This document shows positions 1 through 13,037 of a stretch of 64,000 nt of DNA, piece after piece. The notes beneath the pieces are model-generated. The model saw only the letters and a program-made list of their open reading frames with translations, did not search any database and was not told where the DNA came from. The first letter of the stretch is position 1. The number at the start of each line of letters is the position of its first letter. Position numbers and translations under genes: made by a program. Source of the DNA: Macrostomum lignano (taxonomy: Eukaryota); NCBI GenBank assembly GCA_002269645.1, contig NIVC01002541.1, positions 62,001-126,000 of the forward strand, in the 5' to 3' direction.

Positions 1-1
1 C

Positions 2-937
2 AGATGTAGCAAAGACGTTTTAGATCCTGAGGGGAAAAGGCGGACTGAGGTTGATCTTCTAGTGATTGGTAATTTACTAGAGGAGGCTCACTATGTTTGG
101 ATTAAAGATCTTTCAAGACTCATTCACAAGCAGTTGAATAATCATCACGAGGCTGTTGCCATTTGCCGCTTGTGCCTTAAGCATTACAGTGGACCTGAGC
201 GTCTTGAAAAACTAACAGAGCATGAATTATCATGTGAGGATCACCCCACGAACTGTTCTCTTCCTTCAGCTGAAGAGAAGTATCTCCGTTTTAAGAACTA
301 TCACAAAATGGAGAAGCTCCCATTTGTTGTATATGCTGATTTCGAATGCTCAATCATGCCAGAAACTCAAAAAAATGTCCCCAATTCAGTAGCATATGCC
401 TTTATTAATACAAAAGGACTTGTTGAGTATAATTATTTCATTGGAGAGCAGTGTGTGAAGCAGTTTATTGCCAGAATGTTAGAGTTGCAAAGAGTAATTA
501 GCACCCTTCAGCCTGTTCCAATAATTATGTCTGAGGAGGATGAAAGCAATTTCCTTTCAGCAACTCATTGCCACATCTGCAGGAAACAGTTAACTTGCAC
601 TGATATTAAAAACCCCACCGTTAGGGACCACTGCCACTTTACTGGGAAATTTAGAGGTGCAGCGCATAACACCTGTAATCTAAAGCTAAAATCGAACATT
701 CATGATCTAACGATATTTTGTCACAACGCAAAGAACTATGACATGCATTTAATAGTTGAAAAAATCGACATGATTCCAGACATACACCTTGATTGCATCG
801 CAGAAAACAAGGAGAAGTTTAAGTGTGTTGATATTAAACAGGATAATTTGGGTAACAGTAAAGGTAAGATAAGACAAGGATTCATATCAATTTCTAGCTG
901 CCAGTCTAGACGAACTAAGCAAGAATCTAAAAGATGA
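2..937 (+). CDS. pPolB N-terminal fragment (Zn-finger, exonuclease start, Endo VII/HNH-like insert); frame open from the window start
   Basis: HYVWIKDLSRL, CRLCLKHY, VVYADFEC, CHIC..RDHCHFTGKFRGAAHNTCNL, HNAKNYDMH. The homologous frame is lost near 875. Confidence 0.88.
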   Translation, partial: RCSKDVLDPEGKRRTEVDLLVIGNLLEEAHYVWIKDLSRLIHKQLNNHHEAVAICRLCLKHYSGPERLEKLTEHELSCEDHPTNCSLPSAEEKYLRFKNYHKMEKLPFVVYADFECSIMPETQKNVPNSVAYAFINTKGLVEYNYFIGEQCVKQFIARMLELQRVISTLQPVPIIMSEEDESNFLSATHCHICRKQLTCTDIKNPTVRDHCHFTGKFRGAAHNTCNLKLKSNIHDLTIFCHNAKNYDMHLIVEKIDMIPDIHLDCIAENKEKFKCVDIKQDNLGNSKGKIRQGFISISSCQSRRTKQESKR

Positions 938-2240
938 ACAATGTACATATACAAAGATGTTTGCAAGTAAAATTAACAACAGTGATGAATCATTTAAACT
1001 TTTAAGAAAGAAAGGCTTCTACCCCTATGAAAATATTACTGGGTATCACGTATTTGAAGAAGGTTTACCACCACAGGAAAAGTTCTTTTCAAAGCTAACA
1101 GACTCTGGCATCTCTGACAAAGACTATGAGCACGCGAAGCATGTCTATAATTACTTTAATTGTCAAAACTTCTTCCAGTATCACCTGCTTTACCTCTTCA
1201 CAGATGTGTTTCTGCTGGCTGATGTGTTTGAAACCTTCAGATGCACCTGGTACACAGCATATGGCCTCGATCCAGCACATTATGTGTCTCTCCCTGCCAC
1301 TAGCTGGGAATCTTTGCTTAAAATGAAATGGGATCAAGATCCAGATTGGTACATTGAACTTCTTACAGACATTGACATGTACAATTTTGTCGAATCGTCA
1401 AAGCGAGGGGGGATCTCAATTTGTGTTAACAGGTATGCAAAAGCAAACAATCCCTACATTGAATCTTACAATAAGGAGCAGCCCTCAAACTACATTACTT
1501 ACTTGGACGCTAATAATCTCTACGGGTGGGCGATGAGTCAAGATCTTCCAGTTAGAGATTTTCGATGGCTACTCGTATCAGAATTCAAATGGGACTTTTC
1601 ATTGGCTGCCATTTATGAGGTTGATGTTTACATTCCACCAGAGCTTCACGACTATTTCTCTGACTTTCCACCCTTCCCAGAGAACATCAAGTGCCCGAAA
1701 ATAATCGAAACTCCCTATGGAACTTGGCACCTGTCAGGAACAGAAAAAGAACATACAGAGAAACTAACACAGAATCTAAACAACAAGACACGTTACAAAA
1801 TCCATTACAAACTGCTTCAGTATTTTATCTCACTTGGTTGCAGGGTCACCAAAGTTCACAGGGCTCTTACATTTACAGAGGAAGCGTGGATGAAACCCTA
1901 CATTGATAAGAACACCCAGTTTAGGACCAAAGCAACCAACGACTTTGACAAGAACCTCTTTAAGTTGGCCAACAACTCTGTCTATGGCAAGACTCTTGAG
2001 AATGAGAGGAAAAGAACAAACCTGAAACTTGTTACCTCATCAGAGCCTGCTGTTATTCAAGCAAATATGTCAAAGCCAACATTCAAAGAACTCCATATCT
2101 TTAATAGCTACTTGGGTGTGATCATATTTTACAAAACCAAGGTGACGCTGTGCAAGCCGATCTATACAGGTGTCACTGTTCTCGACGAATCAAAACGTCT
2201 GATGTACCAGTTCTTCTATGGCATGAAGCAGCAGTACAAG
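875..2240 (+). CDS. pPolB central fragment (exonuclease end and palm)
   Basis: DSYQFLAASLDEL, RKKGFYPYE, YLFTDVFLLADVFE, RGGIS, YLDANNLYGWAM, FKLANNSVYGKT, KPIYTG (ORF track 957..2303). Confidence 0.92.
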
Positions 2241-3790
2241 CAGTGTTGGGCACTTCCGTTACCGAGTAACTTGCAAATGGTAACGCAAGTTACTTTTTCG
2301 TAAAGCGTTCCTTACGCAAGTTACTTTTTTATTTTAGTAACGGAGTAACGGTAAGTTACTCAAATTTCGGAAGTCCGTTACAGTTACTTTTCAACAATCG
2401 CCATATTTAAATTTAAAACTGAAATTCTTAGCTAGTACGCCGGTTGTCACATGTTTTTTGCATTTTTCATTCCTAAATTCAAAATTAAGTAATAGTATCA
2501 TATGGTATTGCGCTTAATTATTGAAGAAATACTTGAAACATGTTTTACTTTGTTAATTTCCGTAAAATATTTTCGCCTTTCATTTTCGATCGTTACTAAA
2601 AATTTTCTAGGTTTGATTCAAACAAAAAACCAAAGAAAGAAATTCATCTGTAGCCTCCACAAGTCCCTCCACTGGCACTGCAGTACCAAGGACGACTTAA
2701 GTAGAAGGACGGGAAACCTCGTTTCTTAGAAAAGTTTTGAAGGCACTTTTTCCCGAAAAAATACACTACGGAGATAGGAAGTTTTCATTTTTTCAGCACA
2801 AAAATTGTTATTGCGTTTGATAGGAGGCAGATCCAGTGTTCATCTTTTGATATGTTGTACCTTTTTTATTGCTCTATCGATATTTATAAAGCTTTTCGTT
2901 CAGAAAATTAGGATTCTATGTTAATTTTTTATTCTACGTATATTTTCGCGTGTCTTGTGCTTGAAATACATTAGAATGCCACGGCTCGGCTCTTTAGCTT
3001 CATGAGTCTTTTTTATAATTCTTACCCGACTGTGTAGCAAATATTTGTAACAGAGATGATAAAATAGGTTCATAAAACCAAATATTGGAGCTGTGTCATG
3101 CATTTTTGTGATTTTTAGATACAGGAAATATACGTAGAATAAAAAATTAACATAGAATCCTAATTTTCTGAACGAAAAGCTTTAAAAATATCGATAGAGC
3201 AATAAAAAAGGCACAACATATCAAAAGATGAACACTGGATCTGCCTCCTATCAAACGCAATAACAATTTTTGTGCTGAAAAAATGAAAACTTCCTATCTC
3301 CGTAGTGTATTTTTTCGGGAAAAAGTGCCTTCAAAACTTTTCTAAGAAACGAGGTTACCCGTCCTTCTACTTAAGTCGTCCTTGTGCAGTACACTAGACC
3401 ATTTTATACAGTTCTATTTATTTTACTCTATTGAATTTTTGATATTCGTTTATTTTATCATTTATAATTTTAATTATTGATTGCCATTGCCCATTGGTCC
3501 TTCTACTTGCCTCACATCGTGTCGCCAATTCCTGTCTCTGTCTGTTAATCGGTTAATCCCAATGCCCAATGGCAAATTTCGGTAACAACAATGTGAAAAA
3601 ATGTGCAATGTGAAAAAAGCAGAAAATTTTGTTAATAACATGGGTAACGGAAGTGAGTAACGGACAGTAACTTAAAAGTTACCAGGTTTTTGTCTAAAGT
3701 TACTAGGCTAACGTAAGTTACTTTTTAAAAATTGGTAACTTAAGTTACAGTAACGCAAGTTACTTTTTTTGAGTAACTTGCCCAACACTG
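2241..3790. mobile_element. Non-autonomous hAT-like DNA transposon (1,550 bp), copy 1, inside pPolB
   Basis: 12-bp TIR CAGTGTTGGGCA...TGCCCAACACTG, 8-bp TSD AGTACAAG (2233-2240 and 3791-3798), subterminal GTAAC/GTTAC repeats, no transposase. Confidence 0.93.
2687..3384. mobile_element. Nested fold-back MITE (698 bp, 259-bp inverted arms), P- or hAT-like
   Basis: Arms 2687-2945 and 3126-3384 are inverted with about 3 mismatches. Termini are CAAGG...CCTTG. 8-bp TSD TGCAGTAC (2679-2686 and 3385-3392). Confidence 0.88.
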
Positions 3791-11576: not shown

Positions 11577-11736
11577 TTTTAGAGAAAATTTAGATTTTTT
11601 CAAAGGGTAAGGACCCTGCGCTGATGATTTAAAGTCTTTGGGATCTGGTTTCGCGTTGCAAATTGAATGTGGGGAGAAGAATGCAGATTATTTTCTGATT
11701 GTTTCGAAGATGCTATGGGTGGATGTCAGTGGATTA

Positions 11737-11981
11737 TGTAGGACACTTGTTATGCTCTGATTCTGTCAAGGAGGAAGGAGGATAGGTTAGGAGGATTATG
11801 GATGACGTTTTCGGAGCTGCTATGCTCAGAATAACAGTAGGACACCGGTTATGCTCTGATTCTGTCGGGGATAATACGGATGGATTTAATGGGATTATGT
11901 TCGAAGTTTTCGGAGCAAGGGCGACCCCCCTTTTTTTCTGATTCTGTCGGGGATAATATGGATGGATTTAATGGGATTATG
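11737..11981. repeat. Direct repeats in the presumed viral terminal region
   Basis: A 45-bp repeat at 11855-11899 and 11937-11981 (1 mismatch), plus a GTAGGACAC..GTTATGCTCTGATTCTGTC repeat at about 11738 and 11837. Confidence 0.75.
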
Positions 11982-13037
11982 GAGGACGTGAAAAATTTTG
12001 TCCCAGAAGCCCCCTCATGCATTCTACTAATGGTAATCAACTGTCATTTAGGGACTACGTAGGAACTATTAGGAATAGGACTTAGGATTTAGGTTAGGGA
12101 ATTAGGGAATTGCACTGTTATCAGAGCGTGGTGGAGTGAGCAGTTGTGGACAGCTGCACTCTTACAAAAAGCCACAAGCGCTCGAGGATGGCATTGCAAA
12201 GTGCAAGTGCAGGCCGCCCTATAAAAGTCTGCTTCCACTTTAAAGGGGTTGTATGCCTTTGTGGGGTGGGGTTCAATTCGTACATTTTTAAAAAGAGACA
12301 TTTCAGAAGTCGCACGAGAGCGGGAGACCATGAGATTCGGCCGGAATTTCGACGATATCTGGCAGACGTGGGAAGTGATAATGCAGACACTTTCACAGGG
12401 ACTTCATCGGGGAAATTTACTATAAATAAGCGAGGGGTTAAATGTATAATCTTTACTCTTTAATATAATATATATAATAGATTATTAAGAGTATTGGAGT
12501 AGCTTAGTTATAACTAGTGTCTCAGACTTATTCTCCCAGCTTGTTAGCTCGCTTATTCGCTTATACTTACCGGCTAGAGCTTTATACTCAGTCCTCGTAA
12601 AAAGCTATTCGGCACATCATCTTGCGGACTCGCTCGTGGCATGCCGCCCAAACTTCTGCATGTTCAGTGTAATAGTGCTACATGTAATATTACTTGTACA
12701 GATCAGGGAATCGATTTAATGCTTTCTTACATCTTCTACACGTTACGAACACATCACTACCATAGGAGAACACCAATATAGTAGTTTTTGTTCTATTTAT
12801 ATGCTTTGCAAGACATACGCCAGATGCGCGTTGAATATTTTAAAGATGCATCAAAGTCATGCATTTACTTCAAATGAGCTGGACCAAACAGAAAACGATT
12901 TAAAGCGATCTACAATTTTAAGAATCCATACAAAAGTTACATAGCAGCTACGTGTTAAATATGTAGTTCCTTAAAAATGAAAAAAAATCTTGTAGCAAAG
13001 ATTAACTTTATGCAGTGCAAGCTACTCTACAACTAGT

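Follow-up and report, generated by a model that had tools for sequence, protein, structure and literature searches.

What does a Polinton with a broken polymerase and whole capsid genes represent: the relic of a transposon, or one member of a population that has recently spread as a virus would? The question is raised by a stretch of 64,000 nucleotides of Macrostomum lignano DNA (assembly GCA_002269645.1, contig NIVC01002541.1, positions 62,001 to 126,000 of the forward strand), hereafter the window. The region is an integrated Polinton/Maverick of the adintovirus type, a member of an already known class. Comparison of neighbouring stretches of the contig gives the copy a length of 16,423 bp (G000:C2541:57606-74028), and the window holds its right three quarters. 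The copy has a broken polymerase and whole genes for capsid, penton, ATPase and protease, and it belongs to a family of about 240 copies. We think it likely that this family spread recently by replication outside the chromosomes, probably in capsids, followed by re-insertion.

The element begins with AGTAG and ends with CTACT. Its terminal inverted repeats, of about 690 bp, are identical at 687 of 690 aligned bases, the left one carrying one additional 81-bp unit. The 4.4 kb upstream of the window contain the left terminal repeat, an open reading frame (ORF) of 130 amino acids (aa), a truncated PLA2-like gene, the integrase, a pX-like gene and the start of PolB. In Pfam the 331-aa integrase ORF matches rve (E 4e-8, above the cut-off), the 154-aa pX-like gene has an E of 2e-7, and the PLA2 gene, of parvovirus type, has an E of 6e-12, only the truncated form from the window copy having been scanned. 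PLA2 and pX are two separate genes on opposite strands. Within the window, the 957-2303 frame matches DNA_pol_B_2 (PF03175, E 2e-12), polymerase motifs A, B and C are all found in the PolB pieces, and the 6445-7425 frame matches Pox_A32 (PF04665, E 6e-6, above the cut-off). Since protein-primed PolB (pPolB), integrase, inverted repeats, target-site duplication, capsid, penton, ATPase and protease are all present, the copy has every feature that defines a Polinton/Maverick. A sequence-only reading of the window had recognised the set of PolB, adenain, A32 ATPase, double jelly-roll (DJR) capsid and penton as that of a Polinton/adintovirus, and Pfam matches, motifs and folds bear it out. The left end, which that reading expected upstream, was found at G000:C2541:57606. 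Its span of 1..12460 was too long, as the right end lies at 12028 and the bases from 12029 to 12570 are an unrelated dispersed repeat. Eight of the nine ORFs that it counted after PolB do fall in the interval from PolB to the right terminal repeat; the only candidates for the ninth are a 78-aa ORF within that repeat (11340-11576) and the 172-aa PolB tail.

In this class of elements, replication of the linear genome starts at its inverted ends and is carried out by a protein-primed PolB, an ATPase packs the DNA into a DJR capsid with pentons, a protease matures the particle, and the integrase inserts the genome with a 6-bp duplication. Are the two presumptive capsid proteins of the window copy what such a scheme calls for? 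The frame of the major capsid protein (MCP) contains the DJR-like domain PF21738 (E 1e-8). Its model, built on a 14-row alignment with a predicted local distance difference test (pLDDT) value of 55, matches the MCPs of Sputnik, mavirus, PBCV-1 and iridovirus in Foldseek (E 4e-12 to 2e-10 for the first three, with a template-modelling score (TM) of 0.48 at the best E); its top matches are all DJR capsids, including viral ones in BFVD. The penton model (pLDDT 65) aligns with the mavirus penton in VIA-align (Z 9.8, root-mean-square deviation 8.0, 209 residues aligned) and with capsid chains of PBCV-1, EhV-201, aviadenovirus and Sputnik at Z 8.0-9.8; the six best rows are viral capsid entries, and the best unrelated row has a Z of 7.0. 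In Foldseek the penton model also matches minor capsid proteins in BFVD (E 1e-11), and an atlas search likened the penton to viral clusters without names (score 0.98). The models are middling, yet two structure libraries concur for both predicted proteins. The 431-aa and 285-aa ORFs, whose failure to model as jelly-rolls was to have spoken against a virus, thus match double and single jelly-rolls, respectively.

Searches for relatives of the MCP sequence gave nothing useful in the PDB, and a scan of IMG/VR with the MCP alignment found no relative, while a JGI metagenome scan found relatives only at 19-26%. Ten environmental MCPs (P0001-P0010), which come from short contigs lacking context, are 40-77% identical to the window MCP and group with the two local versions of the protein in a single supported clade. 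In the tree, these two versions are each other's closest relatives (support 100/100), nested among the environmental MCPs.

How large, and how old, is the family? A 22-letter terminus pattern has 482 exact matches in the genome, 247 forward and 235 reverse (the reversed control gave 0), which corresponds to about 240 elements. At 25 terminus pairs, drawn from the first 100 of these matches, 17 of the 6-bp duplications are perfect, three have one mismatch and five are mismatched; five pairs span just 0.6-3.8 kb. Three miniature copies of 640-869 bp (L080, L081, L082) have the family ends and 6-bp duplications and no genes. The MCP search, with 97 of 670 candidates scored, returned one group at 97-100% identity and a larger group at 83-84%; the PolB search (130 of 1,107 candidates scored) returned mostly matches at 94-99%. 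The depth of MCP in contigs of run X1, about 3,700-4,100 against 171 on the single-copy flank, is of the same order as the type-A copy count without being a copy number. The suggestion of a young lineage is borne out for the family. A second, distant Polinton family, with a PolB 25-36% identical, occurs on another contig beside or within a copy of the main one (L089-L091, G000:C67), and one type-A copy (L013-L014, G000:C1330) has a fragment of the other penton version, inverted, within its left end.

The virion genes of this family bear the mark of selection. Among unbroken natural copies (10-17 per gene, broken ones being excluded), the pairwise ratio of non-synonymous to synonymous change (dN/dS) is 0.12 within and 0.07 between versions for MCP, 0.21 within and 0.05 between versions for penton, 0.12 within versions for the ATPase, 0.29 for the protease and 0.14 for the integrase. 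Changes confined to a single copy behave similarly: in MCP they give a dN/dS of about 0.2 (9 non-synonymous and 11 synonymous in 10 A copies, 27 and 33 in 12 B copies), and those in ATPase and protease also give about 0.2. Because even these latest changes show a dN/dS of about 0.2, most differences predate insertion and arose while the genes were working. The same argument, that differences accrued while the genes were working, has been made for fish Mavericks (PMC8097293).

The second mark of a virus-like history is the reassortment of gene versions. Two versions of each of several genes circulate in the family, with DNA identities to the window copy of 96 and 81% for the ATPase, about 90 and 68% for the Gln/Pro-rich ORF402, and 98 and 78% (MCP) or 76% (penton) for the capsid genes; PolB is nearly uniform across copies (96-98%). 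Seven of the eight possible combinations of ATPase, ORF402 and capsid versions occur in 30 copies, and again seven of eight in the 45 typed copies reached after 40 further stretches had been added; most of the sampled copies had been chosen by MCP score. ORF402 and the capsid genes, though adjacent, are unlinked in version (Fisher p 0.35), and MCP and penton are of the same version in 65 of 69 copies. The linker between ORF402 and MCP (Table 1), nearly the same in both capsid versions, marks the switch of version and is the presumed crossover zone. Each of the four pairings of ORF402 and capsid versions turns up among copies whose target duplications are perfect, a point against chimeras of the assembly. 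The window copy has the minority capsid version, found in 2 of 18 terminus-picked typed copies. The copies at L206-L209 have an MCP intermediate between the versions beside a type-B penton, from a crossover within the capsid gene or a third version.

These results suggest the following course of events. Two sister lineages in the same cells would have exchanged virion genes through short common linkers, and the family would have inserted about 240 times. After its own insertion, the window copy would have lost PolB to a transposon, which ended its self-copying. With its ends and integrase frame kept and its own PolB broken, it could be at most a passenger of another copy's polymerase.

Several points weigh against this proposal. 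No stretch among 40 has every core frame unbroken, so that no fully intact sibling of the kind envisaged by the sequence-only reading was found among them, and none of 29 PolB starts extends past 1,200 aa. Purifying selection records past function and not current activity, and it was measured in unbroken copies only; changes that appear private in a sample of 10-14 copies may recur in unsampled ones. Four of the 69 copies mix versions within the capsid block, and some sampled copies share profiles and may be duplicates, so that the haplotype counts are not independent. The fold models, as said, are middling (pLDDT 55 and 65, TM 0.4-0.5). Finally, gene conversion among integrated copies could produce an identical mosaic.

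This last point belongs to an alternative in which no particles are involved: the element would be a self-synthesising transposon, and its mosaic would result from gene conversion between integrated copies. About 240 near-identical copies of 15 kb supply many templates, and some copies are deleted or miniature yet keep their ends and duplications intact, which shows that copying in trans or internal deletion does occur. Moreover, although animal Mavericks are regarded as viruses, no particles of theirs had been observed as of PMC8097293 (2021), and a single search of later literature, a thin check, listed no paper that reports them. Were particles dispensable, however, one would not expect the genes for capsid, penton, ATPase and protease to be under strong purifying selection down to their youngest changes, and capsid and penton versions stay together in 65 of 69 copies; we regard this alternative as rather improbable.

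If the family spread in capsids, is it still doing so, or are all copies now dead? The answer depends on whether the decay of the copies is real. Among terminus-picked copies, 14 of 21 have an unbroken MCP, and none of 18 has an unbroken middle piece of PolB of the same length (Fisher p 8e-6). PolB has about seven frameshifts per copy, and stop-free PolB frames of at least 1,250 aa make up 3 of the 130 scored matches. Such a contrast is what one would expect of co-option by the host, with capsid genes kept and polymerases lost by selection. Against this, the contrast tracks distance from the ends of the element, seven frameshifts are found where one would suffice, and private deletions are likewise rare in the integrase, another gene near an end (0.11 per kb). 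Selective loss of PolB was therefore rejected in favour of position-dependent error, and host co-option appears very improbable.

The breaks in the siblings are mainly 1-bp deletions. In 15 copies their rate is 0.15-0.24 per kb in the outermost 3 kb of the element and 1.0-1.2 per kb at 4.5-7.5 kb from an end, whereas private substitutions are flat along the element (4-6 per kb). A G-run deletion present in 6 of 16 copies is not among the best-supported 12 of 53 indel rows from short-read contigs, and among the contigs listed some traverse the middle of PolB without a frameshift. The gradient of deletions, together with the mismatch to short reads, suggests that much of the breakage is consensus error arising midway along long repeats. 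Consequently, intact copies are probably undercounted, and the intactness of long high-copy repeats may be understated in long-read assemblies generally.

The same observations bear on a burst that went extinct recently, in which the family spread as proposed and all copies are now broken and decaying. The absence of a fully intact stretch and of an unbroken middle PolB piece is what this alternative predicts, and the high-copy families of axolotl (287 copies) and tuatara (280) are all defective according to PMC8097293. On the other hand, 1-bp deletions that peak in mid-element over flat substitutions are expected of long-read consensus error, the recurrent deletion is absent from the 12 best-supported rows of the short-read contigs, and some of the contigs listed cross mid-PolB in frame. 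We hold an extinct burst to be possible, though doubtful. To a similar degree one may entertain its opposite, an active population of Polintons that reinfect as particles and recombine ATPase, ORF402 and capsid with penton in the manner of phages, the apparent decay being mostly assembly error. For the narrower question of whether the family is still active, we see the chances as about evenly balanced.

In the window copy the loss of the polymerase, claimed by the sequence-only reading, stands, and it has two causes, a frameshift near 875 and a 1,550-bp insertion. The frameshift may have arisen in the assembly; of the 28 stretches measured, 22 stay in frame over that interval and six, the window copy among them, do not. 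The insertion is hard to explain in that way. The form without it is present in contigs from all four short-read runs, and at least seven full-length copies of it exist. We take it to be of hAT type from its short inverted ends and 8-bp duplication. A base-for-base identical twin with an 8-bp duplication of its own lies 22.7 kb downstream (window 24933-26482) and is missing at a colinear locus on G000:C1, and it fits a recent local hop. Nested in the insertion, at about 2687-3384, is a palindromic element of about 700 bp (259-bp arms, 99%), which is independently very abundant (3,369 first-look candidates).

Some features of this PolB deserve comment. The endonuclease VII-like insert in its N-terminal piece matches Endonuclease_7 at E 1.5e-4, under the curated cut-off. 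It had been considered as a marker of a rare pPolB2 class, which was dropped because the insert is also found in 6 of 12 close relatives scanned and in Spodoptera elements. PF03175 is matched by just 2 of those 12 relatives, and the match of the window copy is modest. A layout of TP, vOTU, Exo and Palm has been described for PolB (PMC11161782); at the N-terminus of this PolB, an OTU domain, which Alpha adintoviruses have there, gave no Pfam match, and Cys/His motifs are suitably placed when compared by eye with the pattern of such domains.

Is the virion module intact, as had been claimed? All eight frames after PolB, those of capsid, penton, ATPase and protease among them, are unbroken in the window copy; this is true of none of 22 terminus-picked siblings, many of whose breaks are probably assembly error. 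The PLA2-like gene, however, breaks off after 97 codons, where most siblings have 149-171, and its catalytic motif deviates from that of the 26 other copies that reach that point. The module is therefore nearly but not wholly intact. The coordinates of all features are collected in Table 1.

Table 1. Features of the Polinton copy and its right junction, in window coordinates
Feature	Position	Strand	Basis
Right 12 kb of the Polinton copy	1..12028		Anatomy of contig and upstream stretch
End of N-terminal PolB piece (657 aa from upstream Met), with endonuclease VII-like insert; frameshift near 875	1..937	+	ORFs, Pfam
Middle PolB piece with motifs A and B, cut by insertion	957..2240	+	PF03175 E 2e-12, motifs
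Non-coding insertion, presumably hAT-type, 1,550 bp	2241..3790		Short inverted ends, own 8-bp target duplication
C-terminal PolB piece with motif C	3791..4323	+	ORFs, motifs
Adenain-type maturation protease, 133 aa	4369..4770	+	Peptidase_C5 (PF00770) E 1.6e-4, above cut-off; His, Asp, Gln, Cys motifs
242-aa ORF (ORF242), hydrophobic hairpin-like stretch, found across copies	4775..5503	-	Sibling comparison
290-aa ORF, internal 84-bp repeat, C-terminus differing among copies	5556..6428	-	Repeat analysis, sibling comparison
A32-like packaging ATPase, 266 aa from common start, two family versions	6445..7245	-	Pox_A32, Walker A, Walker B, arginine-finger motifs
Small ORF, 128 aa from sibling-shared start (169-aa frame)	7461..7970	-	Sibling comparison
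Gln/Pro-rich ORF402, 402 aa, two family versions	7864..9072	-	ORFs, version typing
Linker, near-identical in both capsid versions; mean 97.6% in 40 other-version copies	8990..9190		Copy alignment
MCP, double jelly-roll, 431 aa, minority version A	9103..10398	+	PF21738, fold
Penton (minor capsid protein), single jelly-roll with inserted domain, 285 aa	10421..11278	+	Fold
Right terminal inverted repeat, ends CTACT	11340..12028		Alignment to left repeat
6-bp target-site duplication; same 6 bp precede left end	12029..12034		Flank comparison

Five of the ORFs after PolB, those beyond protease, ATPase and MCP, have no convincing match to a Pfam family. ORF242 found only weak look-alikes without names in an atlas search (score 0.93). 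For the 290-aa ORF a fibre-like role is our guess, and the small ORF is a putative core protein. The 326-aa frame of the ATPase and the 169-aa frame of the small ORF are probably overlong, as the start of the former falls inside a 21-bp tandem repeat and the common downstream starts of the copies give 266 and 123-137 aa, respectively.

Is the element truly joined to its surroundings? The sequence-only reading had named a chimeric or contaminant contig as what would defeat its interpretation, and the one observation in that direction is that no contig among the short-read contigs listed bridges the junction at 12028. The 6-bp duplication is, however, identical at both ends, and the motif is single in uninterrupted copies of the target repeat (exactly so in three of seven loci). 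A second locus, on G000:C1, is colinear with the two flanks; about 450 bp replace 24 kb there and no Polinton protein match is found, and such an element-free locus speaks against a chimera of contigs. Twenty public runs from eight studies, furthermore, contain over half of the words sampled from the element. We conclude that the integration is real, and a chimera or contaminant is scarcely credible.

The colinear stretches (G000:C1:553000-589000 and G000:C2541:32000-92000, 85-97% identity) represent a duplicated segment or a divergent haplotype. One run labelled as another organism (X2) contains, in long contigs, 63% of the words of the element together with some of the host flank, a matter of a sister taxon or of labelling. 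Among the public runs listed as containing the element, none is an RNA run. Contigs of two runs that may be RNA do cover the element, though contigs are no evidence of transcription, and trace DNA of a 240-copy element would look alike. The label XRRA1 that had been given to the flanking gene was not confirmed, since Pfam gave a weak LRR_4 match (E 0.019) and a homologue search was empty. The dispersed repeat at 12029-12570 often occurs as same-strand pairs 7-15 kb apart and resembles a long terminal repeat (LTR); the Polinton is inserted about 10-15 bp in from its end. To the left, close to the Polinton, is a Gypsy-type LTR retrotransposon (L012, G000:C2541 about 52250-56930) with 322-bp LTRs that are 99% alike, and a retroelement with frames for reverse transcriptase and RNase H lies at window 32549-34812 on the minus strand.

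What, then, is gained? The window copy itself is ordinary and polymerase-dead; the family is notable for its size, for selection on its virion genes and for its gene-by-gene reassortment. With about 240 young copies, capsid selection visible in the latest changes and two reassorting capsid versions, it is suited to a search for free genomes and particles and to following module exchange at the scale of a population. If it is still active, naturally occurring particles of an animal Maverick could be obtained from Macrostomum lignano.

It remains to compare the family with known systems. With intact vertebrate Mavericks of the class Polintoviricetes (PMC8097293) it shares intronless genes for pPolB, rve integrase, ATPase, protease, MCP and penton, inverted repeats, a 6-bp duplication, an AGT-type end, a length of 15-17 kb and virion genes under purifying selection. 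Its gene order differs, the integrase standing beside PolB and MCP and penton at the right end; its end motif is AGTAGA where those of vertebrates have (AGT)2 or (AG)3; and its roughly 240 copies compare with a vertebrate median of 8 and a maximum of 287. A further difference is that it carries PLA2-like and pX-like genes. Spodoptera Mavericks 1 and 2 (PMC5803895) have the same set of domains, namely a PF03175 PolB with a weak endonuclease VII match and a parvovirus-type PLA2. The paper that defined Alpha and Beta adintoviruses, and reported the transfer of modules between them, draws these Spodoptera elements among contigs with an Alpha PolB (PMC8502044). Alpha adintoviruses have a PF03175-type PolB strongly similar to that of bidnaviruses and a single PLA2X gene, in which pX forms the C-terminus (PMC8502044), whereas here PLA2 and pX lie on opposite strands. 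Gasdermin and cupiennin, genes of Beta adintoviruses, gave no Pfam match in the ORFs scanned, profile-profile and fold searches not having been made. Judged by its domains the family is Alpha-adintovirus-like, a provisional placement. Named adintovirus capsids in BFVD match the window MCP by fold only, at 11% identity, and the family may already figure among compiled adintovirus sequences. Corals harbour many expressed polintoviruses (PMC11131425). As to recombination among Mavericks within one genome, a literature search gave deeper mosaicism only, which does not prove that no such case has been described. Nematode Polintons (10.1101/2023.08.22.554363) and polisuviruses (10.64898/2026.10.13.758929) also exchange modules between Polinton lineages, within one genome too, and what they swap against the virion module are highly divergent replicases. 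The present family, unlike those, has a near-uniform polymerase, and what its copies reassort are single virion genes about 20-30% apart.

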